Assembly: GCA_003552565.1 (NCBI GenBank)
Contig: PUNB01000062.1
Location: 1 to 40,606, forward strand
Length of the DNA stretch: 40,606 nt
Direction: 5' to 3'
From: Lentisphaerota bacterium
GTDB taxonomy: Bacteria; Verrucomicrobiota; Lentisphaeria; Oligosphaerales; PUNB01
In this document: piece after piece, positions 2,261 through 40,606 of the stretch
Layout of the letters: every line of letters begins with the position of its first letter
How positions within the stretch are numbered: the first letter of the stretch is position 1
The notes under the pieces: model-generated
What the model saw: the letters and a program-made list of their open reading frames with translations, nothing else
Told to the model about the DNA's origin: nothing
Databases searched by the model: none
Program-made: the position numbers and the translations under genes

Positions 2261-2459
2261 GCCTGCACGGGCTTATGTGAGACTTCATATATATAACCTT
2301 GTCCCGAATCCGCCTGAGGCGGATCACAAACCTGATTCCAAAGTCAAAAAACACGAGACAAGGTGCGAGACAAGGTGCGAGACAAGGTTTTTTATGCCGC
2401 AACAGTCTCTACCTCGGGGTGTCAGGCGCTTCGCGCCGTGGGCGAGACTTGTATGAAAC
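2261..2459. repeat. Mosaic repeat cluster: partial core tail, 12-nt-periodic hairpin with an inserted GC hairpin, full core element
   Basis: Collinear with 40030-40222. It contains 3 tandem 12-mers, CGAGACAAGGTG/T, at 2354-2389, and the opposing arm AACCTTGTCCCG at 2295-2306. Confidence 0.9.
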
Positions 2460-2653
2460 AATGGGTTTAATGGCCGCCATGTGATTCGCTGACTTTCAAA
2501 ACGCAGGCTTCGCCAAAATAAGACAAGATATTTTAACCACTGAGCTTCACTTATCGGCATTGATCCGATGTCCGTTCACAAACCGAATTCATTGCTTTTA
2601 GATTATAAGTGTAGATTAATGTTGATTAGTGGTTTAACAGGAATATCATCTTC

Positions 2654-4819: not shown

Positions 4820-5383
4820 GCGGAAACCTGAAAGCTGAAGGCTGAGGAAAAGCGGGAAACTCGCTGGTCGCAAGTCATAATCCGTATCTTTAATATGTAA
4901 TGCGTAATGGATGGGACGGCGGGGGGAGAGGAATGTATCATAGTGTGTAAGTCGCTGGTCGCGTGTCGCTAGTCATAATTCTTGATCTATAATGCGCAAT
5001 GGATGGAACTACGAGACTGCAATTTTATGAGGCCTGTGGAAGTTTCTATTAAAAATTACACAAGCGTCCCATGGGATGCGTTACTACACTTTGTCTCGCA
5101 CCTTGTCTCGCACTTTGTCCAACTGCCTTCTCAAAACCAAACAAGTACTCGACAAGGCGCGAGACAAAGTGCGAGACTAGGTTTCATTTTATGTGCGTGT
5201 AATGGCCTCACACCCCTTTTCGCATACCCTCTAGTTACGGCTCGACATGCGAGAACGGTGTACGAGTTGGCGCAATCGTAATCCGCTCTCGTCACCCGCT
5301 AATAACGACGAACGAAGCACGATGAACGACGAACCGTGTTTCGAACAAGCCCGACCCTTGGCGCAAGGCCGAAAAGGAACCGG
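4820..5383. repeat. Mosaic repeat cluster with several module types
   Basis: It contains a ~55-bp direct duplication (4861-4915 and 4952-5007), a CGAGACAAGG-type hairpin (5089-5183) and a 'CTTTTCGCATACCCTCTAG' module (5213-5236). An AACGACGAACGAAG module (5301-5342) is identical over 42 nt to 39150-39191. A degenerate core element abuts the ribD stop. Confidence 0.85.
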
Positions 5384-6421
5384 TCAAAAATCTCCCGTCA
5401 CCAGCAGGTCTTCGCCTATCCTCCTTGCGCGCATATTTTTCAGTTTCCAGGCTTGTTCCAGTGATACCGGATCATCCCCGCCCACCGCCGGACGACTGGA
5501 GCGGCCGCCAAGAATACGTGGAGCAATAAAGAACATAGCCTGATCAACTATACCGGCGGCCAAAACCGCCGCCGCTAACTCTCCTCCGCCTTCCACCAAT
5601 AAGGCCGTAATATTCTCTTTCCCCAGGTCTCGCATACAATTCCGCCACTCCTGCTTGTCGCCGGGCGCTATCAGCCGCGGGGGGGTTTCAGGATCCCGCC
5701 ACAATTCCAAGTCTCGACTGAAATTCTGACTGCGAGAACAGATTATCGGCATCGGCTGCCGTTCCCAATCAGCCGGTTCCCTGACTTTCAAACGCGGATT
5801 ATCCCGGCGAACTGTTTCGCCCCCCACCATGATTGCGTCCGCCCAGCGTCGCTGTTTCTGCACCAGGCGCCGGGATTTCTCCCCGCTGATCCATTTCGAA
5901 TCACCACCAACAGTGGCAATCCGTCCGTCAAGAGTCATCGCCAGTTTCAGGATCACAAAAGGGCGTTTCTCGCACACCCAGCAGAAGAAAGCCTCATTCA
6001 ATCTTCGGCATTTCTCTTCCTCCACCCCACACTCCACCTGTAATCCCGCCTCTCGCAGTATACTCAGGCCGCGGCCCGCATGTCGGGGATCCGGATCTTC
6101 ACAGCCCGCCACAACCCGTTTAACTCCGGCGGCCTTAATCGCTTCCGTACAGGGAGAAGTCCGACCGCGAGTGGAACAGGGTTCAAGATTAACATAGAGC
6201 GTCGAACCTTCAGCTCTCTCTCCGGCCTCCTTCAGGGCCGCGATCTCGGCATGACTCTCACCGGCCCGACGATGATATCCCTCTCCAACCGTCGCGCCAT
6301 TCCGCACCGCCACCGCGCCCACCATCGGATTGGGGCTGGTGCGCCCCCAGCCTCGGCGCGCCAGAGACAAAGCCCGCCGCATATAACGACGATCCAACCG
6401 CAATTTTTCCGGCTCCGACAT
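5384..6421 (-). CDS. ribD: Bifunctional riboflavin biosynthesis protein RibD (pyrimidine deaminase / uracil reductase)
   Basis: CDA zinc motifs 'HAEIAAL' and 'PCSTRGRTSPC', followed by a C-terminal RibD reductase domain ('LKLAMTLDGRIA', 'LLVEGGGELA'). Confidence 0.93.
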   Translation of the reverse strand: MSEPEKLRLDRRYMRRALSLARRGWGRTSPNPMVGAVAVRNGATVGEGYHRRAGESHAEIAALKEAGERAEGSTLYVNLEPCSTRGRTSPCTEAIKAAGVKRVVAGCEDPDPRHAGRGLSILREAGLQVECGVEEEKCRRLNEAFFCWVCEKRPFVILKLAMTLDGRIATVGGDSKWISGEKSRRLVQKQRRWADAIMVGGETVRRDNPRLKVREPADWERQPMPIICSRSQNFSRDLELWRDPETPPRLIAPGDKQEWRNCMRDLGKENITALLVEGGGELAAAVLAAGIVDQAMFFIAPRILGGRSSRPAVGGDDPVSLEQAWKLKNMRARRIGEDLLVTGDF

Positions 6422-7150: not shown

Positions 7151-8452
7151 CTACCCCTCTTTCCGTTCAATGTCAGCCCCCAGCTGAATCAATTTTTGTT
7201 CAATACCTTCGTATCCCCGATCAATAAAATGCACATTTCTGATTATACTCTGACCTTTTGCGCACAGCGCCGCCCCCAGCAACGCGATGCCGGCGCGGAT
7301 ATCCGGACTGCTCAGCTCAATAGGATGCAAAGTCGAGGGACCGGCGACAACCACCCGGTGCGGATCGCAGATGACCGCGTTAGCTCCCATGACGATCAGG
7401 CGGTCAACAAAATACATTCTGCTCTCATAGAGTTTTTCGAAAAACAAAACCGTGCCGCTGACCTGAGTCGCCAGGACAATACAAACGCTCATCAGGTCAG
7501 AAGGAAACTGCGGCCATATCCCGTCATCAATCACCGGAATGCCGCCGGTGAAATCAGGCTGAATCCGCCGCTCCTGTTCCGGACCTACCCGCACCCAGTC
7601 AGTACCGAATTGCAATTCAATGCCGAGCCGGCGAAAAACATGCGCGATCATACGGTAATGTTCGGGATTTATATCCGTCACTGTAACATCACCGCCGGTG
7701 GCCGCGCCAAGAGCGATAAAACTGCCTGCTTCAGTATGATCTGAAACCACTCGACAGTGTGTACCGTTTAATTTTTCAACACCTGTAATACGCAGGTTCG
7801 GCGAACCGTTGCCCTCAATGACAGCTCCCATAGCAACAAGCATTTCTCCTAAAGCCTGAACATGCGGTTCACAGGCGGCGTTGCGAATGATTGTTTCCCC
7901 CTCGGCCAACACCGCCGCCAGCATCAAATGTTCGGTGGCGGTAACGCTGGCCTCAGTCAGAAATATATCCGCTCCCCGCAAGCGGCGGGCGGCGTTAAAA
8001 CGGAAACAGCCGTCAATTTCAATCTCAACCCCCATGGAGGACAATCCATGAAAATGCGAATCCAGACGTCGTTTGCCGATCACATCCCCGCCTGGCGGCG
8101 GCATGGAAACCCGGCCTGAACGATGCAGTAAAGGCGCGGCAAACAGCACACCCGCCCGTAACTGACTGCTTAATGAGCGCGGAATATCCGCGTCCCCAAC
8201 ATCCCGGGCAGTTATAACCGCCCGCCGCGGCTGTCGTTCAACCTCGGCTCCCAGCATCTCCGCCAACTGCAGCATTATCTCCACATCGCCGATAGCGGGA
8301 AGGTTGTCAATAATCACCGGTTGATCAGTCAGAAGAGCGGCCGCCAGCATCGGCAGCGCCGCGTTCTTATTCCCCGAAACAGCAACCTTCCCGCTCAAAG
8401 GCGTCCCCCCTGCAATCTTAAAATATCCGCACGCAGTATTCCTAGCGTTCAT
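7151..8452 (-). CDS. murA: UDP-N-acetylglucosamine 1-carboxyvinyltransferase
   Basis: 433 aa. It has 'GGTPLSGKVAVSGNKNAALPMLAAALL' and the EPSP-synthase-fold repeats, and its length is right for full-length MurA. Confidence 0.93.
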   Translation of the reverse strand: MNARNTACGYFKIAGGTPLSGKVAVSGNKNAALPMLAAALLTDQPVIIDNLPAIGDVEIMLQLAEMLGAEVERQPRRAVITARDVGDADIPRSLSSQLRAGVLFAAPLLHRSGRVSMPPPGGDVIGKRRLDSHFHGLSSMGVEIEIDGCFRFNAARRLRGADIFLTEASVTATEHLMLAAVLAEGETIIRNAACEPHVQALGEMLVAMGAVIEGNGSPNLRITGVEKLNGTHCRVVSDHTEAGSFIALGAATGGDVTVTDINPEHYRMIAHVFRRLGIELQFGTDWVRVGPEQERRIQPDFTGGIPVIDDGIWPQFPSDLMSVCIVLATQVSGTVLFFEKLYESRMYFVDRLIVMGANAVICDPHRVVVAGPSTLHPIELSSPDIRAGIALLGAALCAKGQSIIRNVHFIDRGYEGIEQKLIQLGADIERKEG

Positions 8453-8506: not shown

Positions 8507-9511
8507 TTACTCTTTTCCAGGCTCCCGGGTCATCAACTCTCGCACCGCCCGAGCTGGTTCTTTGCCTTCATACAGCACTTGATAAGTCTCTTCGACAATC
8601 GGCACCTCTATCCCCGCTTCGGCGGCCAGCCAGCGTACTCCGACAGCGGTTTTCACACCTTCCGCCACGGAATTTCCCATTTTTTCAGTCGCCTCAGCCA
8701 ATGACAGCCCCTGGCCGATCCATTCCCCGAACCGGCGATTACGGCTGTGCAGACTGCTGCAAGTGACTAATAAATCGCCTATGCCGCTCAGCCCGGAAAA
8801 GGTTTCCGCCACGCCTCCCAAACTGCGCCCCAGGCGCATCATTTCCGCAATCGCCCGGGTCACCAGCGCCGCCTTTGAATTGTCCCCCAGACCCAAGCCA
8901 TCCCCAACTCCCGCGGCGATGGCGTAAACATTCTTCAGCGCACCCCCCAATTCCACGCCGACAATGTCAACCGATGTATACACCCGAAAATATTCATTAA
9001 TGAAAATATCCTGAACACGCTTGGCGATCAACTCATCCGACGCGGCGGATACCACGGCGGCGGGCATCTTCCGCACCACCTCCTCGGCATGACTTGGACC
9101 GGAAAGAGTACATACCTCCACATCCCCCAGCGCTTGCCGTATCAGCTGGGAAGGGCGCAGGCAAGACTGCGTTTCGATTCCCTTGGCGACATTCACCAGT
9201 ACCGGCATGTTTCCGCCGGCTGCCCCCAGCCCTTTTAACCGCTCAAGCACCGCCCCCAAATACTGCACAGGGGTCGCCAGCACCGCCATTTCAGCTCCCT
9301 CCTCGGAAAAGGCTTGCCGTAAATCATCCGACACATTCAAGGAAGACGGAACTCGAACCCCAGGCAGGAATTGCCTGTTCTCCCTAAACTCCCGGATTTC
9401 CCGTGCCTGCTCAGAAAAGGCGCTCCACAAAGTCACCTGGTGACCATTGTCATGCAGCAGCAGCGCCAGCGCGGTGCCCCAGGAACCGTCGCCCAGTACA
9501 CTTATTCGCAT
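8507..9511 (-). CDS. gpsA: NAD(P)H-dependent glycerol-3-phosphate dehydrogenase
   Basis: Rossmann motif 'ISVLGDGSWGTALA', plus 'GALKNVYAIAAG' and 'SRNRRFG'. It lies immediately downstream of plsY, a conserved pairing. Confidence 0.93.
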   Translation of the reverse strand: MRISVLGDGSWGTALALLLHDNGHQVTLWSAFSEQAREIREFRENRQFLPGVRVPSSLNVSDDLRQAFSEEGAEMAVLATPVQYLGAVLERLKGLGAAGGNMPVLVNVAKGIETQSCLRPSQLIRQALGDVEVCTLSGPSHAEEVVRKMPAAVVSAASDELIAKRVQDIFINEYFRVYTSVDIVGVELGGALKNVYAIAAGVGDGLGLGDNSKAALVTRAIAEMMRLGRSLGGVAETFSGLSGIGDLLVTCSSLHSRNRRFGEWIGQGLSLAEATEKMGNSVAEGVKTAVGVRWLAAEAGIEVPIVEETYQVLYEGKEPARAVRELMTREPGKE

Positions 9512-10158
9512 GGTTTTTCTTTTCCTTTTCGGCTGAACTTATGCTCCGTACCTTTCAGAAGCCGCTGTATGTTTCCTCGATGTCGCCATATAATGAACAG
9601 GCTTAAAACGGTCAGAAGTATCAGAATCTGTATCTCCGTCCCGCCCTCATAATCCGGCTGCCGCCAGTTAACGGCGGTGAAATGAGCCATAGGCAGAACC
9701 GCCGCGGCACCGATACTGGCCAAAGAAACATAGCGGGAGATATGAAACAGCAAAAGCCATACCACGCCGCCCGCAAGGAAAGCCCAGGGAGACAGAACAA
9801 ATATAGCTCCTAAAGTAGTGGCCACGCCTTTGCCGCCATTGAAACCGAGCCAGATCGGCCACACGTGCCCAATCACAGCTCCCGCGGCCGCCGCCACCGG
9901 CAGCCAGGCTCCCCCCGGCAAAGCGCCATCAACAAATATTAAAACCACTCCCGTCGGCACGGCTCCTTTGCCGAAATCCAGCAAAAAACAGGTTTTCCCC
10001 CACTTTCCCCCAAGCACCCGGGTAAGATTGGTGGCCCCGACATTGCCGCTGCCGATCCGCCGAATGTCAACCCCTTTGAGTTTTCCCAAAAGCAAAGCGA
10101 AAGGCACGGATCCAAGAAGATACGCCGCCACAAAAGTAATAAAAATATTCACTGTCAT
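9502..10158 (-). CDS. plsY: Glycerol-3-phosphate acyltransferase PlsY
   Basis: 'AYLLGSVPFA', 'GSGNVGATN' and multiple transmembrane segments. I prefer the start at 10158 (MTVNIF...); the longer ORF start at 10179 is also possible. The gene overlaps the gpsA start by 10 nt. Confidence 0.88.
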   Translation of the reverse strand: MTVNIFITFVAAYLLGSVPFALLLGKLKGVDIRRIGSGNVGATNLTRVLGGKWGKTCFLLDFGKGAVPTGVVLIFVDGALPGGAWLPVAAAAGAVIGHVWPIWLGFNGGKGVATTLGAIFVLSPWAFLAGGVVWLLLFHISRYVSLASIGAAAVLPMAHFTAVNWRQPDYEGGTEIQILILLTVLSLFIIWRHRGNIQRLLKGTEHKFSRKGKEKPCE

Positions 10159-10249: not shown

Positions 10250-10521
10250 TCGCTTAAGTGTATCCGAGCAAGGGCAGCGGCGAAGAAAGCGATTAAGTGT
10301 ATTTGAACGCCTCTCTCTAAACACTTCAGCATCCTCTTAACCCCACCCTTCGTCTCACCCTTACTTGGTTACGCTTAAACCACTATCTTTATCGGTCAGT
10401 GGGCGACAAACATTCGCGACAAGGTTCTAGACAAGGTTAGGCCTATCCCATGGGATGTTGTGAATTTGCCCTGACACCTGAAAACTGACACCTGAAAACA
10501 CGAATCTCACATAATCCCGAA
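10250..10521. repeat. Mosaic repeat cluster between the kinase 3' end and plsY
   Basis: It contains 'CGATTAAGTGTAT' modules, a half arm 'CGCGACAAGGTTCTAGACAAGGTT', the palindrome 'TCCCATGGGAT' (also at about 5068) and the tandem 'CTGACACCTGAAAA' x2. A truncated core tail 'TCTCACATAA' abuts the kinase stop. Confidence 0.8.
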
Positions 10522-12651
10522 CTAATCCAGATAGTACAAAAAATCATCTATCGCGCTTTCCAGTCCCGGACTCAGTTCCACCGCTTTCCGGCTGTAGGCC
10601 CGGGCCCGCTCCGAATAACCATACCAATCAGCCAACAAAGCCAGCCGGAAGAAATCCTCGGCGGCGTCTTTTTCCGGGTCAGTCCCGAACATCTCGTTTT
10701 GCGGTGCGTCTCTCATCATTAAACGCTTCTCGGCGTAATGCTCGAAAAATTCAAAAAACTGCTCAATCGCCACGGTGTGCCATTGCAGCTCGCGTATATT
10801 GCCTCTGCCATCTGCCGGCCTAAATGCCAAGTGATGCTCATTGGCGAATGGAATAGTTCCGTAAATTCTAGTTCCATTCTCAAGGAGAATCCCTTCTTCT
10901 CTCGCTCTGAACGGAGTACGCATCAGCTGCCGCAAATAGCCGTGCATGCGACTCAAGCGTACAATACGTTCCTTCTCCAGCTCCCGCACACCTTCGGGAT
11001 TGCGCTGCACATAATCACGCAGTTCGTCCTTGTTCGCACCGAAATTCAGGCCTTCAGGATGCGGCCGCTTATCAAGTTCAGGCACGGGAACCCCCGCAGG
11101 TTCGAAATCACCATCTTCCTCGTCATCAACGTCCTCATCAAATAAAGCCCAAGGGTCTTCCTGCTCCTGTGCCTCCACAGGTTCCGACTCCTGCCATAGC
11201 CATGAAGGCTCTACCTCCGCACTCTCTTCACTGTCAAGCTCCTGCTCCGGCAGTTCATCCCATACTTTCGGCTCATCACGCCGAATCGGTCTTTCTTCCG
11301 TCTCGTCCTCTACTCCTTCCGGAGCTTCATCCTCCTCAAGCTCAGGCGCTATTGGTTCTTCTTCCGGAGGGACAGGTTCCGCTTCCTCCTCCACCCTTCC
11401 AGTACCAAAGAGACCGCTGTAAATCCTGTTCATTACCGGCTGTACATGCTCTAGATACCAAGTCTCCTCCTCCCGCGCCCCCCGCCAGAAAACCATCGCT
11501 ACCACAGCCAGAGCCGCCAGAACCGCAGCTCCGGCCGCCAGCCTTATCCTGCTTTGTCTACGCCGCCGCAGATACTCTTTTCGAGCCTTCTCACCCACCG
11601 CTCTTTGACTTAATGAATTACCGCGATTACCTTTCCGCAAACAGCGCCGAAGATAAACCGCGATTCTACTCTTCCTTACCGGCTCCTCGGCCGGCAGTTC
11701 CTGGCGTGTTTCCTCTAGAAAAGATATCACTCGATCACAACTGACTGAACGTTCCTCCGGCTTCAGCGCCAGCATGCGCAGGATAAACTCGTTCAGTTCC
11801 TCACTCACATCCGGACGCTCCTCGATCGGTTCTCCCGCAATCAGCAATTCGGAAACATCGTCCATTTCCATATCAATATCACCGCGTTTGCTGGAAAAAG
11901 GCGGATGTCCTGTCACCGCGAAATATAGACAAGCTCCCAGGCTGAAGATGTCACTTCGGTAATCACCTGCACTCCCCCGTAGCACCTCTGGACTGGCATA
12001 GCGCAAGTCCACATTCGACCCGTCGCCCTCACTATCCAATTCGGCGTCCGGGTCAATTCGGGCCATGCCGAAATCGCTTATCTTGACATCACCTTCAACA
12101 TTGAACAGAATATTGCGTGGATTAAGATCACCATGCACAACCCCTTCCCGATGCGCCGAGGCCATTCCCCGGGCTGTCTGGGCCATGCAATGAAGACAGG
12201 CGGAAATAGATAAAGGATACTCCCCCTTCACTTTGTCATACAAGGATCCGCCGGACATGTATTCCATGGATATGTAGTAGCGCCCTTCGAATTCGCCGCT
12301 GGAGAAAATCGGCACCAAATGAGGACTGTTCAGCGCCGCCACCCTTCTGGTCTGCTGGACCAGCCGCTCGCGCGCCCGCCGGCGCCTGGTCAGCTTCGAG
12401 CTGAAAATCTTGACTGCCACTGTTCGGTCAAGCTTGAGATCATTCGCCCGATAGACCGAGCACAGCTCCCGCTCCTCTATCGGCTCTTCCAACAGATAAT
12501 GACCGAACCGACAAGGTACGATAATCAGATTATCACAACTAGGACAATCCAATTCATCAAAAGGATCAAAATTGGAAACATCAAGCTTCTGCTCACAATG
12601 CGGACAGAATATCTTGACTTGCTTACTTGGTTTTGATTGAAGATCGGACAT
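10522..12651 (-). CDS. Membrane-anchored Ser/Thr protein kinase with N-terminal zinc ribbon and acidic linker
   Basis: The N-terminus has CPHC...CPSC. The Hanks kinase motifs are 'VAVKIF', 'HGDLNPRN', 'DFGMA' and 'ASPE'. A single transmembrane segment ('AAGAAVLAALAVVAMVFW') is followed by a ~130-aa D/E-rich low-complexity region and a ~190-aa C-terminal domain. Confidence 0.85.
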   Translation of the reverse strand: MSDLQSKPSKQVKIFCPHCEQKLDVSNFDPFDELDCPSCDNLIIVPCRFGHYLLEEPIEERELCSVYRANDLKLDRTVAVKIFSSKLTRRRRARERLVQQTRRVAALNSPHLVPIFSSGEFEGRYYISMEYMSGGSLYDKVKGEYPLSISACLHCMAQTARGMASAHREGVVHGDLNPRNILFNVEGDVKISDFGMARIDPDAELDSEGDGSNVDLRYASPEVLRGSAGDYRSDIFSLGACLYFAVTGHPPFSSKRGDIDMEMDDVSELLIAGEPIEERPDVSEELNEFILRMLALKPEERSVSCDRVISFLEETRQELPAEEPVRKSRIAVYLRRCLRKGNRGNSLSQRAVGEKARKEYLRRRRQSRIRLAAGAAVLAALAVVAMVFWRGAREEETWYLEHVQPVMNRIYSGLFGTGRVEEEAEPVPPEEEPIAPELEEDEAPEGVEDETEERPIRRDEPKVWDELPEQELDSEESAEVEPSWLWQESEPVEAQEQEDPWALFDEDVDDEEDGDFEPAGVPVPELDKRPHPEGLNFGANKDELRDYVQRNPEGVRELEKERIVRLSRMHGYLRQLMRTPFRAREEGILLENGTRIYGTIPFANEHHLAFRPADGRGNIRELQWHTVAIEQFFEFFEHYAEKRLMMRDAPQNEMFGTDPEKDAAEDFFRLALLADWYGYSERARAYSRKAVELSPGLESAIDDFLYYLD

Positions 12652-14473: not shown

Positions 14474-14492
14474 AAAAGACGGCCTTGCGGAA

Positions 14493-14677
14493 GTTTGCAC
14501 CGCGCGGGCGTTCGCCGCCCTTGTCTCCTCGTTACCGCGCGGATGCTTGGCCCCACTGGCTCTTCGTTGCCGCAGTTACCGCACGGGTGCCCGCCGGCCC
14601 TTAGGTCCCATTACCGCACGGGCACTCCTCACCCTGTTACCGCGCGGGCGTATTATTACGCCTTATTACGCCCGGCC
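14493..14677. repeat. Degenerate ~33-35-bp tandem array (core GTTACCGCGCGGGCG) ending in a GGCGTA-TTAT-TACGCC hairpin
   Basis: Five to six units are visible. It has the same orientation and the same terminal unit ('GTTACCGCGCGGGCGTATTATTACGCC') as the array at 16462-16742. Confidence 0.85.
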
Positions 14678-16405
14678 AGACGCCCGATCACACACCCGGC
14701 CCCTCGCCGGAACGGCTCCCAGCGGCCATCGCCCCCGAGGTTGATAATGACCGAAAAGAATGTCCGCCGCGGCCGCCAGCCCTTCATCGCGGGTTTGAAA
14801 AGTCATCAGCACCGCGTCCGCCTGATTGTCAACCCAAGGTGGATACGGTGTATTGGTTAAACTGACCACCGGCAGGCCGTGACCTTTCACCGCCCGAATC
14901 AATTCCGCGTTGTTTTCCTGGCTGCGAGCCGCCCAGTCAGTGACCGCTACAAGATCAAAACCAGGTTCAAAACGTTCCATGGTTCTTCTGATCTCATCCT
15001 CCGACGGATGCCATGAAATCGGCAAGTGCAGGATATTGCCGCTGTAAGCCATCAGCTTCTCCAGCAGCATGCCGTTGTGAACATATAAATCATCAGCCTG
15101 CATGCCGGTAAGACTATCGCAGAACTGCTCAATCAGAATAATCCGCGCCCCCTGAGGCAATGGCAGCAGCTCGGAGTTAAAACGAGCATAATTCGCCCCT
15201 TCATAAGCTAGGTCGCGAGCAGTGCTGACCACCTCCGGTTCGAAGACCGCCTTCGCCGCCTCTTTCGGTTCGGCTTTAGGCTTGTCAAAGATGCCGTACT
15301 CCATTTTCATTGACAGCAGACGACGATTGGCCTCATCCAGCCTGGATTCCGGCAAATCGCCGCGCCGAACCGCCTCGATAATGGCACTGTGAACCTGGCG
15401 GCATAAATTGTTCTCGGCTTTCATCAGAACCACATCAGCTCCCGCCGCCAATGCCCGCCAACAGGCTTCGGGTATCGGATGAAGCTGAGATATACCCTCC
15501 ATTTCCATGTTATCGGTTGTCACCACACCATCAAAACCAAGTTCACCGCGCAGAAAATCAGTAATAATAGCCGAACTGAGAGTCGCCGGCCGCCCTGAAG
15601 AATCAAGCGCCGGAAAAGCCGTATGCGCCAGCATGATGCTCGACAGCCATTGGCGGCCGCCCGTATATGGCAGTATTTCCCGTTCCATCAACAGTTTTTT
15701 TGAAACATCTATTGAAGTTACGGCATGGTGGGCATCCTGATCACTGTCCCCGCGCCCGGGAAAATGCTTGGCGCTGCCGATCACCCCCTCTTCGCGCAAA
15801 CCCTGCAGGAAAGCCGCTCCGTAATCCTTGCAGACCTCGGCTCTATCACTGAACGCCCGCCATCCGATCTCCGGATTCCTCCAATTGCTGTTGACATCCA
15901 GCACCGGAGAATTAACCCAGTGGATGCCCACCGCCCGCTGCTGTCTGGCCATGGCACGAGCGGCTCGATAAGCGCTGTCCGGTGAGCCGCAGGCTGTCAG
16001 TCCGACCTGGGACGGCATGAAACGAACACCACCCATGCAATAATTTGAAGACCGATCACCTTCCTGGTCACCAACGAAATGCAGGGGGATGGAATGCTCC
16101 CGGGCCAGCGCCAGATCCTGCAACTGATTTAGAACTTCGGCGTACTGTCCGGGCGAAGCGTAAGGAGCCGCCCGCCGCCAGCCATCGCGGGTCTCGCCGA
16201 CAACGCTCTGAGTCAACCGCAAACCGCCGCAATGTAATTTCTGAACCTGCTCATACACCAGCGGATACAGAGTTGTTCCGTTGAAACACAAAGTCAAAAC
16301 CTGACCCGCTTTCTGTTCCAAGCTCATACGAGACACCAGTTCCATCGCCGCTTTCTCCACTGTCGAACGATCCCTGATTAAATTTTTCTTAGCCTCCATA
16401 TACAA
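14666..16405 (-). CDS. Glycoside hydrolase family 3 protein (NagZ / beta-hexosaminidase-like, with C-terminal domain)
   Basis: 'LEQKAGQVL' and 'KHFPGRGDSDQDAHH' are GH3 N-domain signatures. The last ~10 codons and the TAA stop (14666-14668) lie inside a repeat array. Confidence 0.88.
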   Translation of the reverse strand: MYMEAKKNLIRDRSTVEKAAMELVSRMSLEQKAGQVLTLCFNGTTLYPLVYEQVQKLHCGGLRLTQSVVGETRDGWRRAAPYASPGQYAEVLNQLQDLALAREHSIPLHFVGDQEGDRSSNYCMGGVRFMPSQVGLTACGSPDSAYRAARAMARQQRAVGIHWVNSPVLDVNSNWRNPEIGWRAFSDRAEVCKDYGAAFLQGLREEGVIGSAKHFPGRGDSDQDAHHAVTSIDVSKKLLMEREILPYTGGRQWLSSIMLAHTAFPALDSSGRPATLSSAIITDFLRGELGFDGVVTTDNMEMEGISQLHPIPEACWRALAAGADVVLMKAENNLCRQVHSAIIEAVRRGDLPESRLDEANRRLLSMKMEYGIFDKPKAEPKEAAKAVFEPEVVSTARDLAYEGANYARFNSELLPLPQGARIILIEQFCDSLTGMQADDLYVHNGMLLEKLMAYSGNILHLPISWHPSEDEIRRTMERFEPGFDLVAVTDWAARSQENNAELIRAVKGHGLPVVSLTNTPYPPWVDNQADAVLMTFQTRDEGLAAAADILFGHYQPRGRWPLGAVPARGRVCDRASGRA

Positions 16406-16461: not shown

Positions 16462-16742
16462 CCGCTCGTTTACCCCGCTGTTATAGCATGGGGGCTTTTT
16501 CCGCCCGAGCGCTCGCCACCCTTGGCCCCTCGTTACCGCGCGACCGTTCGCCGCCCTTGGCCCCTCGTTACCGGGCGGGCGTTCGCCGCCCTTGCCCCAG
16601 TTTCCGCGCAGGCGTTCGCCGCCCTTGGCCCCTCGTTACCGGGCGGGCGTTCGCCGCCCTTGCCCCAGTTTCCACGCGGGCATTCGCCGCCCTTGGTCCA
16701 GTTACCGCGCGGGCGTATTATTACGCCCGGCTTCACGCCCGG
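16462..16742. repeat. Tandem array with alternating 35/33-bp units (68-bp higher-order period)
   Basis: The 'GTTCGCCGCCC' phase markers fall at 16511, 16546, 16581, 16614, 16649 and 16682. Alternating A units end in '...CTTGGCCCCTCGTTACCGGGCGGGC' and B units in '...CTTGCCCCAGTTTCCGCGCAGGC'. All frames are open because of the repeat. Confidence 0.9.
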
Positions 16743-16771: not shown

Positions 16772-18079
16772 TCAAAGCCGGCCGTACCCACACTCATCCA
16801 GACAGCTGCGTTCTTCAGTCTCCGGGTTCATAACCTGGCTCTCACCCAGGCAGGCGGCCATAAGCGCCTCAATATCCAGCGGTTCTTCCTGAGCTTCAAC
16901 TTTTCCAAGGTCAGCCATGGTTAAAGGCCTTTCAGGAGCGAATACAGTGCAGCTGTCAGGTGTTTCCCGACAGGAAACGTCATAGGTGCCGATACTGCGG
17001 GCCAGCGCCACGGTCTCATATTTGTCATTGCCCAGCAGCGGACGGTGAATCGGCAGCTCCGAAGCCTGACTGACCACATGCAGATTCTCCATTGTCTGAC
17101 TGGCCACCTGCCCCAGGTTATCGCCGGTAACCAGTCCCCGAATGTTCTTTCTCCTGGCAATACGACAGGCAATGCGGACCATTAAGCGCCGATAAAGAAT
17201 CGTCCGATAACGCGGATTGCATCTATCCCTAATCTCCTTCTGCGCCGATAGAAGGTTGATGCAGTATAAATTCCCGGGCTTTTGGTAGGTATTCAACAAT
17301 CGCGCCAGGCAGGCCACCTTGGTCACCGTCTCCTCCGGAGTGTATGGAGCGCTGTGAAAAGTGATAAAATCCAGAGGCGCTCCCCGGCGCATCACAGAAT
17401 AAGCCGCCGCCGGTGAGTCAATGCCCCCTGACAACAGACACAATGCCCGGCCGGCACTGCCGCTGGGCAGCCCGCCGGGACCGGGAATATTGGCGAACGA
17501 CACATACGCCGCCTGTTTTCTGACCTCCACCTGCACCAGCAGCTCGGGATTCTTCAGATCCACCTTCAGCCGCGGATAGCGCGGCAGCAGTTTATGGGCG
17601 AAATGCAGCTCGATGTCATGACTTGACATCGGAAAATCAGAGCTTCCGCGCCGGGCCCGCATAGCGTATCTGACACAAGCTGACTCTCCCGCCGCGACGG
17701 CGTATTTCTCATATACTTGGGGAAAGTGCTTCTCAACAGCCTCCTCGATGGCCGCCAAATCCGGCTCTGTCCGCAGGGCCGGAGACACAGAAATCAACCC
17801 GAACACTTTAGCCGCCCTCTCCGGCAGACACCTCACATCCTCAACGCTGAATTCCGCTCCGTGTTCCGGCTTGGGCCGCAGAAAAATACGCCCGGGCTCG
17901 CGCACCGCCTTAAATGGAGTAATGTCCTTGAGCTGACGGTGTATACCCTCCATCAGCATTCGTTCAAACTGACTCCGGTTCATTCCCTTGGTGGCAATCT
18001 CGCCATATCGGCAGAGAATACTGTTGCAGGAAAAAGCCGGCATTTCGTGAGTTGTGTTTATTGTATCAGAAACTGTCAT
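16772..18079 (-). CDS. thiI: tRNA 4-thiouridine synthase ThiI
   Basis: THUMP-type N-terminal half plus the PP-loop 'LLSGGIDSPAAAY'. No rhodanese domain is present. Confidence 0.88.
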   Translation of the reverse strand: MTVSDTINTTHEMPAFSCNSILCRYGEIATKGMNRSQFERMLMEGIHRQLKDITPFKAVREPGRIFLRPKPEHGAEFSVEDVRCLPERAAKVFGLISVSPALRTEPDLAAIEEAVEKHFPQVYEKYAVAAGESACVRYAMRARRGSSDFPMSSHDIELHFAHKLLPRYPRLKVDLKNPELLVQVEVRKQAAYVSFANIPGPGGLPSGSAGRALCLLSGGIDSPAAAYSVMRRGAPLDFITFHSAPYTPEETVTKVACLARLLNTYQKPGNLYCINLLSAQKEIRDRCNPRYRTILYRRLMVRIACRIARRKNIRGLVTGDNLGQVASQTMENLHVVSQASELPIHRPLLGNDKYETVALARSIGTYDVSCRETPDSCTVFAPERPLTMADLGKVEAQEEPLDIEALMAACLGESQVMNPETEERSCLDECGYGRL

Positions 18080-18288
18080 AATAATCTTTTCGCCAGAATT
18101 TCAACGAGTTCAGAGATTTTGAAATATCCAGAATTATGCAGGTTTTGTATCAAAGCCGTCGTTTTTTATAATAGCAGCCACAAAAAAATAACCGCCGACA
18201 ACGGAAAAACAAATACCGCCGCATGAATGGACTTGTATGAATTGGTAATGCGTCAGTGAAAGGTGCGAAATTCGTGTCGGTTGACGAT

Positions 18289-18360
18289 AATCCGCCTCAG
18301 GCGGATCGAGAACGGGCAACGAGTCGCTCGAATCGCCCGTCGTTCTCGCCGCCGTTCTCG
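18289..18360. repeat. Small repeat cluster: CCGCCTCAGGCGG hairpin plus CGTTCTCG-type module
   Basis: 'TCCGCCTCAGGCGGATC' is shared with 2309, 19625, 26731 and 40075. It is followed by the inverted 'GAGAACGGGCAACGAG...CGTCGTTCTCGCCGCCGTTCTCG'. Confidence 0.7.
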
Positions 18361-18542
18361 TTTTCCGGCTGGTTGTTTTCAAACGTTGCTCCTATGACTG
18401 ACGGATTGCATGAATTGTTCATAATAGGAGATTGCGTTTCCCATAATTATGAATTAAATTAATATTTGCGATTGCGGGTGAGTTTTGTCCGCCCCAAGCG
18501 TACATTATTATTAACCTTGAACTAATCTACAGGAGAAAAACC

Positions 18543-19049
18543 ATGCACCGCAAAATGACCAGTAAAGAAAATTTCCGCCGCCTGTTTAAGACTTTAATCT
18601 GCATGTTCGGAATCGCGGCTATCGGCGCCCCGGCTGCAAGAGCCCAGCTGGATGAATTTTACACCGTCGACAGTCAGTCGATAATGGAAGTTCATCCCGC
18701 CTTCCAGGAAGCCATGCAGGAGTATCAGCAGGAAATTCAGCAAATGCAGCAGCAGTTGCAGCAGGCTGACGAAGCACAGCGCCAGATGATGGGCCAAATG
18801 ATGCAGCAGCAACTGCAGCGGCGCGGCGCGGAACTGCAGGAAGAAGCTTTTGATAAGATGCGTCAGGACATTCAGCGCATCGCCGATGAAAAAGGCTACA
18901 GCCCCGTATTCGACATCAATGTCGTTCTGGTCGGCGGTCGAGACATCACCGATGAAATTATGGATGAAATGGACATCGAAGAACCGGGAGCTGAAATGCC
19001 GCAACAGCCCCCCCAGGAAATGCCGGAAGAAATGCCGGTAATGCCCTAA
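18543..19049 (+). CDS. OmpH/Skp-like periplasmic chaperone
   Basis: Signal peptide, a Q/E-rich coiled-coil core, and 'IADEKGYSPVFD' near the C-terminus, as in the OmpH family. Confidence 0.6.
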   Translation: MHRKMTSKENFRRLFKTLICMFGIAAIGAPAARAQLDEFYTVDSQSIMEVHPAFQEAMQEYQQEIQQMQQQLQQADEAQRQMMGQMMQQQLQRRGAELQEEAFDKMRQDIQRIADEKGYSPVFDINVVLVGGRDITDEIMDEMDIEEPGAEMPQQPPQEMPEEMPVMP

Positions 19050-19074
19050 CGCCAATTTCGCGCAAAACAGCCTG

Positions 19075-19640
19075 CGTCAAGGCATCCCTGTCTCTCCTAG
19101 GAAGACCCCATGCGGAAAGGGGTCGAGACCTGAATTTATGTTGCTAAAAACCTTGTCTCGAACCTTGTCCCGAACCGAAATCCGATTGGTTTTAATGTTT
19201 TTATCCGAAATGGAATATGGTTCGGGACAAAGTTGAACTCAAGAACATGCGATATACCTTTTCGCATACCCTCTAGGAAGAGGCTATGCGAAAAGGGTTT
19301 TGTGGAACTCACAAGCTCGAAAGTGACTCTGCGTTCCACGGCCAATTGGATTAAGGCGAAAGATTATGACGAAAGATTAGGGAAAAACGGGTGCGCCCCT
19401 TAATCTTTTGCCCTGATCTTTCGCCTTAATCTCGTTTCTGAACCCTTTTCGCATGGGGTCTAGATAAACAAGCTGTGCGAAAAGGTGTATGTGCTTATGC
19501 ACAAAAAAAATAACTTCAGAACCTCCGACTTCCTCCTTCAGGTTTCAGATTTCTGCCCTGATGAATGACACATGGCCGAATTCGCATGTATTAACCAAGC
19601 TAGGTTTTCTGAACTTTGTCTTGTCCGCCTCAGGCGGATC
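19075..19640. repeat. Mosaic repeat cluster downstream of the Skp-like gene
   Basis: It contains several 'CATGCGAAAAGG / CCTTTTCGCAT' hairpins (about 19085-19125, 19257-19296, 19441-19490), an ACCTTGTC-type hairpin (19149-19233) and an 84-nt hairpin (19348-19431). It also has the 'GCCGAATTCGCATGTAT' module (also at about 7123) and a CCGCCTCAGGCGG hairpin. Confidence 0.85.
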
Positions 19641-19779
19641 TGATGTTCATTCCAACCCGACAAACCTTCCGACTCTCATTCACTTGCTTTTGCTCAGCCA
19701 CCAGTTATGTTTCAGTTTATTAGCTAATTGCTGATTGACTTGCAAAAACAATGATTCTACTCACCAACGGGAGGGAATA

Positions 19780-21297
19780 ATGCATCCCAGCAGCGAAGCC
19801 GGCAAAGTGAACAAAGGACGTTCCCTGGAAGCGATGGAGGCTTTCCACACCCTGCTCTCCTTTCTCGCGATTCGTCTATCCCCCGCAAATGAACAACTGC
19901 TCTGTGAGACCGCAAAGGAACCACCGCCGGACGGAGGCGAGTGGATTTTGCAGGCGTTGTGGAATGAAGGCAGACTTCGGGAATCAAGCGAACTGTGCAC
20001 AGAAGAAGGGAACCGAGTGGAAATCATCCACCCCGGCACTTGGAACTCGGAGGCCGGCCCGGACTTTCTAGAAGCGGTGATTAAGCTCGACGGCCACACC
20101 AAACGCGGAGCGGTGGAAATACATCGACATGTAAACGACTGGTTCGCTCATGGACATGACAAGGATCAACGATACAGAGATGTCATTCTGCATGTTGTCT
20201 GGAACGGCAACACTGAAAAATCAGTGCCCGGCCAGTTGCCGCCATGCCTGGAACTGGAAGGGTGTCTTCCCTCTTGCTGGAATGAACTTTTTAATCAGCT
20301 TGCGACTGTGGGATATCCTTACTCCCGGCGTGTTTCCCCCGGCGGCTGCGCCCTGCGGGCAGCGGAGGTTGATGACGCGCTTATAGGCGATTTCCTCACC
20401 GGCGCCGGATTGACCCGTTTCCGTCGCAAAAGCCGATCACTGCTGGATCGGGCGCTGGCGGCGGGCTTTGAACAAACCGCCTATGAATATTTTTGTGAAG
20501 TCATGGGCTATAAGGTTAATCGAGAACCATTCCTTAATCTGGCTCGACACCTGCCGTTACGTAGTCTCCAGGAAATCAACGCCCCCTTAAGCCGCCTGGC
20601 CGTTTTACTCGGCAGCGCGGGTTTTCTCTTCGACCCGACTGTTGAGGACCAAGCGGCAACGCCGGCGCAGCGGAATCTGAACCGCGAGCTTTGGCACCGC
20701 TGGTGGAGCTCGGGCATGCCGCCGATATGTTTGCAATGGCAAAAAAGCGGCACCAGGCCGGCAAACCTTCCAGAAAGACGTTTGATAATTATTTGGAAAC
20801 TGCTTGAACAGTGGAACTATCGTCCGCTTGAACTATGGCGCCGCGGACTGCCGGAGAACCTTTCGCCCGCGGCGGCGATTAAACACCTGCGAAATATATT
20901 CAGCATCTCTTCGGACCCGGAATTCTCCCGACTGCTGAAACTTACCGGCGCCAAGGGGGCTTCACTCGGCACTCAGAGAATCCTAGATATCGCGGTAAAT
21001 CTGCTCCTGCCCTTGATGCAGGCCTGGGCAAATCAGCAGAATAGCCTATCTCTACAGCGATGGTCCGAAGAAGTCTATTTAAATTTACCTCGGCTGCAGG
21101 AGAATCAGGTAACAAGAAAAATTACTCATCGACTTCTGGTTCCGGCCAGCCGCCAACAGGAAATTGTGAAAAAAGCCGTTCAGCAGCAGGGCCTGCAGGC
21201 GGTGGATCGCCAATTTTGCCAGCGGTTCATCAGTGACTGTGGGATTTGCCCCCTAAGCAATCAACAAATGTTTGCAAAGTCCTTGGCCGGGAATTAA
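19780..21297 (+). CDS. DUF2851 family protein
   Basis: 'GPDF..A.I......G.VEIH...DW..HGH..D..Y..VILHVVW' is the DUF2851 signature. I chose the ATG at 19780 because GGGAGGGA sits 4 nt upstream; the track ORF begins at a TTG at 19735. Confidence 0.75.
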   Translation: MHPSSEAGKVNKGRSLEAMEAFHTLLSFLAIRLSPANEQLLCETAKEPPPDGGEWILQALWNEGRLRESSELCTEEGNRVEIIHPGTWNSEAGPDFLEAVIKLDGHTKRGAVEIHRHVNDWFAHGHDKDQRYRDVILHVVWNGNTEKSVPGQLPPCLELEGCLPSCWNELFNQLATVGYPYSRRVSPGGCALRAAEVDDALIGDFLTGAGLTRFRRKSRSLLDRALAAGFEQTAYEYFCEVMGYKVNREPFLNLARHLPLRSLQEINAPLSRLAVLLGSAGFLFDPTVEDQAATPAQRNLNRELWHRWWSSGMPPICLQWQKSGTRPANLPERRLIIIWKLLEQWNYRPLELWRRGLPENLSPAAAIKHLRNIFSISSDPEFSRLLKLTGAKGASLGTQRILDIAVNLLLPLMQAWANQQNSLSLQRWSEEVYLNLPRLQENQVTRKITHRLLVPASRQQEIVKKAVQQQGLQAVDRQFCQRFISDCGICPLSNQQMFAKSLAGN

Positions 21298-24099: not shown

Positions 24100-24580
24100 A
24101 AGGTTAGCAAGAGCCTATGCGAAAAAATGTTTACGGTCTCTACATGCACGAAAAATAAAACTTGGTCGTGTCCGCCTTCAGGCGGCAGTTGCAGCGAGCT
24201 TCCGCCTTCGCCCGCGGGACTACGGCGTGACATGTCAGAGAGCGGGCGCAAGGCCTATGGAGATTCGGCGGATTCCGGGGGCTGAAGCCTCCGAATAGCT
24301 GCCGCCTGAAGGTGGAACTCCGGCATTTTGACGCGCTCATTAAGGTGAAGTTTCATACAAACCCGGCCGCCGGCGCGAAGCGCCGAACAATCCGGAGCTG
24401 GAAGCTCCAGCCACCATCTTAACCGCCGGCGCGAGGCGCTAGATATCACGAGGGAGCGACTTGATGCGGCATATAAAACCTTGTCTCGCACCTTGTCCCG
24501 TGTTTTTTTGATTTTGGAATCAGGTTCGGGACAAGGTTATATATTCGAAGTCTCACATAAGCCCGGCGGTTCTCAGCCGA
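24100..24580. repeat. Mosaic repeat cluster between convergent genes
   Basis: It contains a 'CTATGCGAAAAA...CACGAAAAATAAAACTT' module (compare 27030-27085) and paired CCGCCTTCAGGCGG hairpins. A core doublet split by the hairpin CCGGAGCTGGAAGCTCC (24350-24461) is the reverse complement of 39939-40053. An 'empty-site' 12-nt-periodic hairpin sits at 24477-24539, and a truncated core abuts the glycosylase stop. Confidence 0.9.
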
Positions 24581-26654: not shown

Positions 26655-27325
26655 AGGGTATACGAAAAGGGTTCGAGGCTTGATTTTGTGCTAACCTTGT
26701 CCCGAACCTTGTCACGCACCTTGTCGCATACGCCTCAGGCGGATCGCACACCTTGTCCCAAACTCTGACCCTATCCGTGTTATAATCCGTGGTTCTAAAA
26801 AAACGGCTCTACAGGAAATCCCAAGTGTAATGTGTTAAAGAGATTCGAGTGTACGAGTACGTGTACGAGTACGGGAAGCGCTGCATCGTCATACGGTTTC
26901 GTACTCGTACACCTACTCGTACACGCAAATCTTTCGATTCCTGCCTGCTACCCCGAGGGAGAGACTTATTTAATGGTTTCTGGTGTCAGGTGTCAAGTCC
27001 TGACTAAAAGTTGACACCTTATTAATAGCTAGACCCCATGCGAAAAGGTGTATGCAGTCTCTACACGCACAAGAAAAATAAAACTTTGTCTCGCACCTAG
27101 TCTGGTTTTCTGTCGATTCCTCATTTTTCAGACTAAGTGCGAGACAAGGTGCGAGACTAGATGGGCACAAAATGCCCTGACACCTGAACACTGAAACCTG
27201 AAACCAAGAAGTCTCACATAAGCCCCGCCATCGGCGCGAAGCACGCCGGATACCCCGAGGGAGAAACATCGAACATTGAACACCGAACATTGATCGACGA
27301 ACGAAGAACCGTGTTTCACATAAGC
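26653..27325. repeat. Mosaic repeat cluster (~670 bp) between convergent yggS and the DUF4168 gene
   Basis: Modules in order are a CGAAAAGG module, four ACCTTGTC units with an inserted CCTCAGGCGG hairpin, and 'TCCGTGGTTCTAAAAAAA'. Next come the GTGTACGAGTAC hairpin (26849-26924), a CACCTGA module and a CATGCGAAAAGG module. The cluster ends with a CGAGACAAGG hairpin (27083-27160), a CACCTGAACACTGAAACCTGAAACC module, a core element (27211-27267) and a CGACGAACGAAG module. Confidence 0.9.
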
Positions 27326-28151: not shown

Positions 28152-28290
28152 CTTATGTGAGACCTCGCGGTTTCAGTGTTCAGGTGTCATCTCTGAAACC
28201 CGAAACCTGACTCCAAAAACCATTCAGCAAGTCCTAAACTCAGGGTATCCGGCGCATCGCGCCGGCGATCTGGCTTGTCGGCAGAATCAT
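28152..28290. repeat. Repeat cluster upstream of the DUF4168 gene
   Basis: Core tail 'CTTATGTGAGAC', a GGTTTCAGTGTTCAGGTGTC / CTGAAACC hairpin, and the core centre 'GGGTATCCGGCGCATCGCGCCGGCG'. Confidence 0.8.
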
Positions 28291-39010: not shown

Positions 39011-39241
39011 GCTCCCATACAAGCCCGACCGACGGCGCGAAGGGCCTGATACCCCGGAACAGAAACAGCGGCGAACGAGATCGGCGACGATAACGGTAAA
39101 CGATTATGAGACTCGTCATCCGTTCTTGTCGCCGTTATCGTCAACCGCCAATAACGACGAACGAAGCACGATGAACGACGAACCGTGTTTCACATAAGCC
39201 CGACCGCCGGCGCAATGCGCCTGATACCACGAGGCAGAAAC
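39011..39241. repeat. Repeat cluster upstream of the SNF2 gene: two core elements flanking GACGATAACGG and AACGACGAACGAAG modules
   Basis: The cores lie at about 39011-39066 and 39187-39241 (minus orientation). The segment 39150-39191 is identical to 5301-5342. Confidence 0.88.
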
Positions 39242-39464
39242 ACTTTTTGAACAGAAAATCGCGAAGTTCGCTAAGAGTTTGTGATATAAAATATATTTCT
39301 TTTCGTTCTTTGCGATCTGTAAAAATTAATTTTCATGCAAAGCAGGCGGGTGCCTTTGAGTCTCCCGTCTCTCGGCTCCATCCCCGTTTCACCTGTCCAT
39401 TTCGACCCATTCCCCTTTTTATCCGTTTTCATTTTTTTTTACAGGATCCTGATTCAGGGAAATT

Positions 39465-39801: not shown

Positions 39802-40527
39802 GCTTATGTGAGACTTCGTCTCGGTGATCGGTTATCAGTCATCCGAGTGCCGTACTCGTACACGTACTCGTACACTCAAATCTCCGGGGTCAGAAATAAT
39901 GACGATTAGCGTATACGAGTACGTGTAAAAGTACGTAGAGTCTCTCCCTCGGGGTATCCGGCGCTTCGCTCCGGCGGTCGAGATGGTGGCCGGAGCTTCC
40001 AGCTCCGGATTGTCAGGCGCATCGCGCCGGCGGCCGGGCTTATGTGAGACTTCGCGTTGTTAACCTTGTCCCGAATCCGCCTCAGGCGGATCACAAACCT
40101 GATTCCAAAGCCTAAAAACACTAGACAAGGTGCGAGACAAGGTGCGAGACAAGGTTTATTATGCCGCAACAGTCTCTACCTCAGGGTATCAGGCGCCTCG
40201 CGCCGGCGGTCGGGCTTATGTGAAACACGGTTCGTCGTTGTTCGTTTTATATCAGTGTTAATCAGTGTCCATCCGTGGTTCTAATAAAAAAATTGCGGCG
40301 TGAATGAGGACAGATTTAAGTGTACGAGTACGTGTACGAGTACGGGAAATGCTGCGGTATCGTTATACGGTTTCGTACTCGTACACCTACTCGTACACGC
40401 AAATCTTTCGTATCCTGCCTGCTGCCCCGAGGGAGAGACTTGTTGAATGTGTCACCTGAACACTGAAACCTGAAACCGCGAAGTCTCACATAAGCCCTAC
40501 CGCCGGCGCGCGGCGCCTGATACCCCG
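39802..40527. repeat. Densest mosaic repeat cluster (~725 bp, no credible CDS)
   Basis: Module order is a core tail, a GTACGAGTAC hairpin, a core doublet with a CCGGAGCTTCCAGCTCCGG insert (39939-40053) and a 12-nt-periodic hairpin (40063-40156). Then follow a core (about 40165-40222), a CGACGAACG module, a TCCGTGGTTCTAATAAAAAAA module, a GTGTACGAGTAC hairpin (40320-40398), a CACCTGAACACTGAAACC module and a core (40473-40527). Confidence 0.9.
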
Positions 40528-40606
40528 TAGAAGAAACAGGGAACACTAATAATGAATTTTGAATTCTGAATTCTGAATGTTGAGTTTCGGACAGACCAGA
40601 CAGTTC

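Follow-up and report, generated by a model that had tools for sequence, protein, structure and literature searches.

A clean 22-nt hairpin indel between copies of an intergenic composite repeat in a Lentisphaerota bacterium

Contig PUNB01000062.1 of a Lentisphaerota bacterium (assembly GCA_003552565.1), analysed over its whole length of 40,606 nt (the window), carries three copies of one intergenic composite repeat of ~190 nt, designated E1, E2, and E3. A 22-nt piece with a GC hairpin, TCCGCCTSAGGCGGATCACAAA, is present in E1 and E3 between CCCGAA and CCTGATTCC and is missing from E2. Judged from the sequences, the data fit one old event carried along by the larger repeat rather than a hairpin that jumped repeatedly. 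We give a probability of roughly 0.45 to a reading in which the 22 nt form an optional hairpin module within a modular intergenic repeat of the foldback type, gained once long ago and then spread passively with the composite. What has been verified is a clean indel within a new family of repeats; it does not prove that a new mobile element exists.

The composite begins with the 3' part of a ~60-nt palindromic unit (R60), followed by a left-arm unit of 12 nt, an A-rich loop that starts with ACCTGATTCCAA, and two or three units of the right arm; a complete R60 ends it. The order of parts in E1 is the GGGCTTATGTGAGACTTC motif, the left-arm 12-mer (2296–2307), the hairpin module, a CCAA-type unit with the A-rich loop, three right-arm GACAAGGTGCGA units, and R60.

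2268–2460, plus strand: E1, a filled composite of ~193 nt, assigned to repeat family D4 and 89% identical to E3.
2308–2329 (equally 2309–2330), plus strand: the 22-nt module of E1, ATCCGCCTGAGGCGGATCACAA, with a 7-bp GC stem and a 3-nt loop.
40035–40227, plus strand: E3, the second filled composite, with its module at 40075–40096.
24399–24567, minus strand: E2, the empty composite, with two right-arm units only.

On direct reading, E1 and E3 (2291–2389 and 40061–40156) have the sequence AACCTTGTCCCGAA-TCCGCCT(G/C)AGGCGGATCACAAA-CCTGATTCCAAAG, whereas the reverse complement of 24477–24539 in E2 runs from AACCTTGTCCCGAA directly into CCTGATTCCAAAATC and, read onward, is AACCTTGTCCCGAA-CCTGATTCCAAAA. 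A MAFFT alignment of the composite copies contained a single gap of 22 columns at the module site, and the indel is exactly 22 nt long. The clean difference claimed in the initial annotation was thus borne out by the sequences and the alignment, and also by the assembly of a second sample (see below). Placement of the indel is ambiguous by one base, as AA precedes the gap and AA closes the extra piece: 2308–2329 is equivalent to 2309–2330, and 40075–40096 to 40076–40097. The positions 2309–2330 and 40075–40096 given by the initial annotation are valid, and the placements shifted by one base are equally so. In E1 and E3, the module lies precisely between the left-arm unit and the CCAA-type unit. 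The corresponding units of E2 abut seamlessly and in exact 12-nt register, with ACCTTGTCCCGA (24537–24526) followed by ACCTGATTCCAA (24525–24514). E2 differs further in having two instead of three right-arm 12-mers and an additional A within the loop. With gapped columns left out, its identity to both E1 and E3 is 82%, and E1 and E3 agree with each other at 87%.

The two ends of the contig share repeat blocks with 87–94% identity (181–351 with 39803–39974, and 2268–2460 with 40035–40227), which are contiguous at the right end and split by two genes (365–2256) at the left. Evidently, assembly of the contig broke off at these repeats. Because the contig ends lie in repeats, we sought other assemblies of the window loci. 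The ENA contig L139 from sample ERZ27265998 matched positions 25366–23828 with 99.87% identity, two mismatches, and no gaps, and spans the whole of E2. Thus, the empty site is real and occurs in a second sample. Contig L142 from the same ENA sample aligned without gaps to 17780–21014, with one single-nucleotide polymorphism, and supports two further hairpins at 18290 and 19623. The Logan contig L140 (SRR490150) equals positions 262–2317 of the window and stops inside the E1 hairpin, reproducing the left filled junction, and Logan contig L138 equals 26861–24538 and reproduces a hairpin-bearing array at 26728 exactly. We conclude that the 22-nt indel is not an assembly artefact.

To describe the hairpin itself, its core CCGCCTSAGGCGG was searched with at most one mismatch, which gave five sites in the window (0.08 expected). 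The 18-mer ATCCGCCTSAGGCGGATC, allowing up to three mismatches, returned the same five sites and no others, each on both strands (0.11 expected). All five are intergenic. Common to all copies are only 17–18 nt, and the full 22-nt unit recurs only at 26728 (19/22). Of the five window copies, four have a perfect 17-nt core, as does a copy from another metagenome (contig L119, described below), while the surrounding sequence diverges by 13–22%. DNA folding of the E1 module gave −7.3 kcal/mol (z −4.2). Among E1, E3, and L119, the only change within the core concerns the central base, which in the window is G in E1 (2316) and C at 40083, 18298, 19631, and 26736. This change equals a reverse-complement flip of the perfect 17-mer and could reflect either a point mutation or an inversion of the loop.

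26694–26765, plus strand: a 12-mer array with the module ATACGCCTCAGGCGGATCGCAC (26728–26749), a 19/22 match to the E module.
19611–19655, plus strand: a degenerate copy of the arrangement unit, hairpin, CCAA, composed of AACTTTGTCTTG (a unit with three mismatches), TCCGCCTCAGGCGGATC, 8 nt, and ATTCCAA.
18290–18307, plus strand: a solo hairpin, ATCCGCCTCAGGCGGATC, whose best upstream 12-mer match has six mismatches.
24168–24201, plus strand: a member of a separate hairpin family, GTCCGCCTTCAGGCGGCAGTTGCAGCGAGCTT, with an inverted partner at 24298–24330.

The flanks revealed a common junction architecture. The array at 26728 reads ACCTTGTCGC-ATACGCCTCAGGCGGATCGCAC-ACCTTGTCCCAAACTC, with the CCAA-type unit ACCTTGTCCCAA at 26750–26761; the 16 nt after its module match the ACCTGATTCCAAAGTC of the E copies at 12 of 16 positions, and an E-family profile gives an alignment here over its own positions 15–81 (E = 3e-6). 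The copy at 19623 has the order AACTTTGTCTTG-TCCGCCTCAGGCGGATC-TGATGTTC-ATTCCAA, with ATTCCAA 8 nt to the right of the hairpin, compared with 9 nt in the E copies. Counting E1 and E3 once, three of four independent loci have a same-strand 12-mer unit whose end is no more than 2 nt from the hairpin; with ~1.8% of intergenic positions qualifying, the probability of this adjacency is ~2e-5. The copy at 18290 is the only one with unrelated flanks. Its site is the intergenic region from which thiI and an OmpH-like gene diverge, next to another small inverted repeat, and nothing else around it recurs. This copy shows that the hairpin can be separated from its host repeat. Of the sites at which the initial annotation had seen the hairpin alone in other contexts, the one at 18290 stands, but those at 19622 and 26730 share the flank architecture of E1 and E3, and those at 24168–24186 and 24298–24316 belong to a different family. 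The latter two hairpins, an inverted pair, read CCGCCTTCAGGCGGCAG, with a 4-nt loop and their own tail, TTGCAGCGAGCTT (also given as CAGTTGCAGCGAGCTT). This second GC hairpin family, CCGCCTTSAGGCGGMAGTTKCAGCGAGCTT, forms an inverted pair ~110 nt apart beside E2 and has relatives at L012 1447–1530 and L015 700–760, in contigs that carry 12-mer arrays.

The host element is embedded in ordinary chromosomal DNA with murA, ribD, thiI, tmk, htrA, and genes for heptosyltransferases, a Ser/Thr kinase, and an Snf2 helicase. The GC content of the window is ~51%. Intergenic DNA amounts to ~8.3 kb, about one fifth of the window, and is dense in short repeat modules, of which at least eight families recur in varied order. 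The 12-mer units, ACCTTGTCNCGM, form tandem arrays, often as two inverted arms around a loop, which yields a foldback. About 27 such units occur in eight clusters, with one to nine units per arm and a variable loop. The loop start ACCTGATTCCAA agrees with the 12-mer consensus at 8 of 12 positions and is therefore regarded as a degenerate 12-mer with a CCAA tail. CCAA-tailed units are found in the window only directly after a hairpin (E1, E3, and 26728) or in E2. The R60 unit has the form AAGTCTC...GGCGC-NTC-GCGCCGGCGG...GGGCTTATGTGAGACTTC, with GCGCC after NTC; it is the commonest module of the mosaics, with at least 10 copies in both orientations, and direct repeats of its 3' motif flank the E composite. 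A hairpin, GGAGCTTCCAGCTCC, considered as a second nested insertion, was rejected as such, as it is the junction palindrome of two tandem R60 units.

2296–2389, 5083–5192, 10405–10440, 19145–19235, 24477–24540, 26689–26761, 27078–27165, and 40063–40156: 12-mer arrays of the window.
134–196, 316–370, 2404–2460, 24345–24460, 27208–27267, and 28241–28290, both orientations: R60 copies.
39013–39066, 39186–39247, 39939–40053, 40166–40227, and 40479–40537, both orientations: further R60 copies.

The composite usually lies just downstream of a gene and in the same direction: E1 starts 12 nt past the stop codon of an aldolase gene and E2 14 nt past that of an HhH-GPD gene, both co-oriented with the gene. 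Single-strand folding paired the two arms and put the GC hairpin (7-bp stem, 3-nt loop) a single base away from the main stem's foot. The hairpin is thus predicted to stack on the base of the long foldback stem in single-stranded DNA or RNA. Elsewhere in the window, GC-rich tandem repeats of 33–35 nt (CCCTCGTTACCGCGCGGGCGTTCGCCGCCCTTGG) occur in the same orientation at 14491–14665 and 16492–16727. Both arrays terminate in GTTACCGCGCGGGCGTATTATTACGCC, and the glycoside hydrolase gene between them (14666–16405) is bracketed by direct repeats.

Metagenomes were scanned for copies outside the window with the pattern GACAAGGTKCGNGACAAGGT, which represents two adjacent 12-mer units. At least 120 loci matched, mostly coding or unrelated sequences, and among the matches listed only L118 and L119 stem from a close relative. 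Contig L119 (Ga0207421_10134962) contains a fourth E copy, which is filled with the identical 22-mer and has, like E2, two right-arm units. Its identity is 82–86% with E1 and E3 and 78% with E2. Among the four copies, E2 thus stands slightly further off than the rest (78–82%, versus 82–87% among E1, E3, and L119). Positions 98–410 of L119 correspond to 40035–40227, 27176–27267, and 28152–28276 of the window and combine the E composite, R60, and CTGAAACCTGA-type repeats in a new order. As these modules are joined differently from anywhere in the window, their order has been reshuffled between genomes. Foldbacks of ACCTTGTC-type 12-mers without the hairpin were found in many other metagenomes (L004, L015, L018, L101, L104, L110, and L114 among the matches listed), and the 12-mer foldbacks of other families in the window also lack it. 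Very similar 12-mer units occur in contigs L046/L076/L086/L106 and L052/L098. From these matches, the 12-mer foldbacks look like a repeat family that is widespread in unrelated metagenomes; they may represent arrays of protein-binding sites, or else miniature elements whose ends contain several sites. We know of no description of this family.

Other searches recovered no further copies. A scan of genome contigs with ACCTTGTCCCGAAN{0,30}CCTGATTCC gave one chance match, in a coding region of a Bryobacteraceae metagenome-assembled genome (MAG), so that the collection would either lack this genome and its close relatives or contain no exact match from them; a protein search with a spurious open reading frame translated from the repeat yielded none; and a fused query of four flanking proteins returned distant endonuclease III-like matches only. 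The nearest homologue of the aldolase is 65–66% identical, the best matches being MAGs labelled Armatimonadota, Lentisphaerae, and Sumerlaeia. Contigs of the nearest relative (L135–L137; 65% aldolase identity, with the upstream neighbour gene also conserved) show the same mosaic style and none of the repeat sequences of the window. Their mosaics include GACGGAT 7-mers, foldbacks of the 8-mer CTCACGCA, and tandem blocks of ~135 nt, for example at 5901–5970, 11296–11410, and 17703–18830 of L135, and also in L136 and L137. The habit of forming intergenic mosaics thus seems to be a property of the lineage, with the sequences turning over.

A single old insertion is favoured by the in-register units of E2 together with the hairpin-less 12-mer foldbacks elsewhere. 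The register of E2 is that of every other array, and a random deletion would seldom restore it; by our estimate, ~3 of the ~40–50 nearby pairs of deletion endpoints do so. The slightly greater distance of E2, the solo hairpin at 18290, and the identical 22-mer in the otherwise diverged L119 also speak for this reading. That three of the four hairpin loci lie directly 3' of a 12-mer, and that the CCAA units are linked to hairpins, is expected if all descend from one composite. In the course of events that we propose, an E2-like element with two in-register units would have gained the module in one seamless event at the boundary between them, with a hairpin of the 18290 type as the donor. Candidate mechanisms would be templated repair, gene conversion, or footprint-free single-strand transposition. 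Passive spread would have followed whenever the composite was copied (E1, E3, and L119) or fragmented (26728 and 19623).

The opposite direction, in which the filled form (unit, hairpin, CCAA unit) is ancestral and E2 lost the hairpin plus 5 nt, is a serious possibility, if a somewhat doubtful one. The loss could reflect precise excision, or else a deletion between the flanking AA through slippage during replication or stimulation by the hairpin. Several observations weigh in its favour and against a single gain. Among the six members with the arrangement of unit, hairpin, and CCAA, five are filled; the diverged copies at 26728 and 19623 belong to these, as does L119 from another genome. CCAA-type units are otherwise always linked to a hairpin. 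The 22 nt are bordered by the AA microhomology, and small perfect palindromes are deletion hot spots, as stated in a passage of PMC3733652 that cites Sinden (1991) and Bzymek & Lovett (2001). Informative sites among 150 ungapped columns of the four copies support the three possible splits 5/3/3, and E2 is not demonstrably the outgroup; with such a star-like tree, the four copies do not settle insertion versus deletion. Moreover, a single occurrence is deduced from very few copies (40 kb and one 1.2-kb contig of the lineage), and no enzyme, donor, or mechanism was identified. On the other side, a deletion would have to restore the exact 12-nt register, the microhomology comprises just 2 nt, and the stem is short (7 bp). 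We also rejected the diverged copies at 26728 and 19623 as proof that the filled state is older, as 26728 is ~80% identical to E1 in the shared core and E2 is 82% identical to E1. On balance, the single gain with passive spread would remain the best description of the indel.

The initial annotation had regarded the hairpin as a mobile or copy-pasted unit. If the hairpin were actively mobile, the palindrome of 17–22 nt would be a miniature element resembling repetitive extragenic palindromes (REPs) or elements of the IS200/IS605 insertion sequence family, with a tyrosine (HUH) transposase acting in trans. Insertion and excision would leave no footprint, 12-mer unit boundaries would be the preferred sites, and each filled junction would be an independent event. 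The seamless filled/empty pair without target duplication is what peel-and-paste elements would give. The strong tie of the hairpin to the 3' side of 12-mer units and the preservation of the 17-mer amid diverging surroundings also agree with mobility, and REPs resemble the subterminal hairpins of IS200/IS605 elements according to a passage of PMC3333891. The five hairpins (2308, 18290, 19623, 26728, and 40075) all lie on the plus strand, and the sole E copy on the minus strand, E2, is the empty one (P ~0.06). With so few copies, the shared orientation is a hint only, although a strand-specific process could be imagined. In nearly all 2-kb bins the GC skew is zero or below, which would place the window on one replichore.

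Against mobility stands that every filled junction shares the downstream CCAA-type unit, which argues for common descent and not for target preference. The tetranucleotides 5' of the hairpin (CCGA, GCAT, CTTG, and GATA) are not conserved, and apart from the ambiguous AA the junctions showed no target duplication. No Y1 or other transposase is among the 20 proteins of the window that were scanned, and two near-identical samples showed no presence/absence differences over 4.8 kb of repeat-rich DNA. Of the claim of mobility, separability from the host thus holds, by virtue of 18290, but we found no evidence of repeated independent insertion, and we consider active movement of the hairpin unlikely. 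Growth of the mosaics by nested insertion is possible. It is likewise improbable that the hairpin is the minimal element of a system of single-strand transposition without footprints from an undescribed lineage, with an unseen HUH enzyme or one like the REP-associated tyrosine transposases (RAYTs) acting in trans. If this were true, the mosaics would be built and dismantled module by module at the boundaries of 12-nt units.

Comparison with known systems gave partial likenesses. Elements of the IS200/IS605 type require a transposase and a conserved target of 4–5 nt immediately 5' of the insertion. The hairpin, the lack of a footprint and of a target duplication, and possibly the strand bias agree with peel-and-paste transposition, but neither a constant 5' tetra- or pentanucleotide nor, among the 20 window proteins scanned, a transposase was seen. 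A MITE, or miniature inverted-repeat transposable element, has terminal inverted repeats and a target-site duplication around the inserted unit. In the 22-nt module, the only junction repeat is the ambiguous AA, and the module is nearly all stem, without separate ends. REPINs are inverted REP pairs that act as the mobile unit, together with a single-copy RAYT gene flanked by REPs. The hairpins of the window are single, with no inverted pairs among them.

REPs and the bacterial interspersed mosaic elements (BIMEs) of enterobacteria and pseudomonads are, in the parts of PMC2817692, PMC3333891, and PMC3116915 that describe them, intergenic GC-rich palindromes, located mostly downstream of genes and combined with other short motifs into mosaic clusters of alternating or tandem order. 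The repeats described here share these traits, and the modules are joined in varying order as in BIMEs and Neisserial intergenic mosaic elements (NIMEs), a likeness of architecture and not of homology. REPs also have a high copy number per genome; the 40.6 kb of the window contain five hairpin copies, all intergenic. REPs are, however, palindromes of 20–40 bp, and the hairpin is a perfect palindrome of 17 nt within an indel of 22 nt, untagged, without inverted dimers, and with no RAYT seen in the 40 kb. The two REP superfamilies are defined by GTAG or CGTC tags (PMC3733652). The hairpin flanks (a slash marks the border) read CGAA/TCCGCC...GGCGGATC/ACAA, GATA/A..., CTTG/T..., and GCAT/A..., with neither GTAG nor CGTC on either strand. 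The host differs from BIMEs in being a foldback of 12-nt tandem units, which BIMEs lack.

Cases of REPs lodged inside larger palindromic repeats are on record from Anabaena variabilis (GTAG-15), Thermomicrobium roseum (GTAG-23), and Halothiobacillus neapolitanus (CGTC-1), and hundreds of empty target palindromes exist as well in T. roseum (PMC3733652). As in these cases, a small palindrome lies within a longer palindromic repeat, and the logic of filled and empty sites is that of T. roseum. The nested REPs are tagged, form dimers in two of the three cases, and lie between the arms of the host palindrome (PMC3733652), whereas the hairpin in E1 and E3 is single and untagged and sits at one foot of the loop, at a boundary of tandem units, with one empty copy known. 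BOX, RUP, SPRITE, NIMEs, and Correia elements are likewise modular repeats with variable numbers of tandem sub-units, for example boxB (PMC3049150). These streptococcal and neisserial composites differ in sequence and lineage, and their nested units are MITE-like, ~100 nt long, and thought to be moved by insertion sequence transposases, compared with a module of 22 nt without ends of its own.

Finally, the palindrome ATCCGCCTSAGGCGGAT could be a selected motif, either a protein-binding site or an RNA structure at 3' ends, that is kept where useful, E2 being a copy that never needed the hairpin or lost it. The core is better conserved than its surroundings. The copy at 18290 is within a region of divergent promoters, and stop codons shortly precede the remaining copies. 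The IMG/VR contig L124 (IMGVR_UViG_3300028638_000037) has two identical copies of 17–19 nt (429–446 and 9503–9521) in short intergenic gaps between co-directional genes, and L131 has the hairpin between short tandem repeats (7570–7586). These viral contigs were found by an exact-sequence search of ~3 million contigs, which returned 12 matches, about our own chance estimate and open to a look-elsewhere effect; the two cases may reflect chance or hint at wider sharing. In the same viral contigs, the GGCTTATGTGAGACTTC motif and the filled/empty pattern each gave no match, and the 12-mer pattern gave nine, all in coding sequences or unrelated arrays. Identical 17–18-mers at different sites require copying and not convergence. 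No T-run follows the hairpins, none was called terminator-like, terminator-like sites overall occur at chance level, and Rfam contains no match. We therefore hold it to be very improbable that the palindrome is a selected motif and not a repeat module, and a role in 3'-end RNA structure would be speculative.

Nesting of small palindromes in larger ones is known from earlier work; the case presented here concerns a previously undescribed modular repeat family of a poorly sampled lineage, which has no close sequenced relative (the nearest aldolase is 66% identical). How mosaic intergenic repeats such as BIMEs, NIMEs, and BOX are assembled is poorly understood, and filled/empty pairs within one genome are rare direct clues to the process. 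A complete genome of this organism could yield hundreds of junctions, enough to tell module gain, loss, and movement apart.

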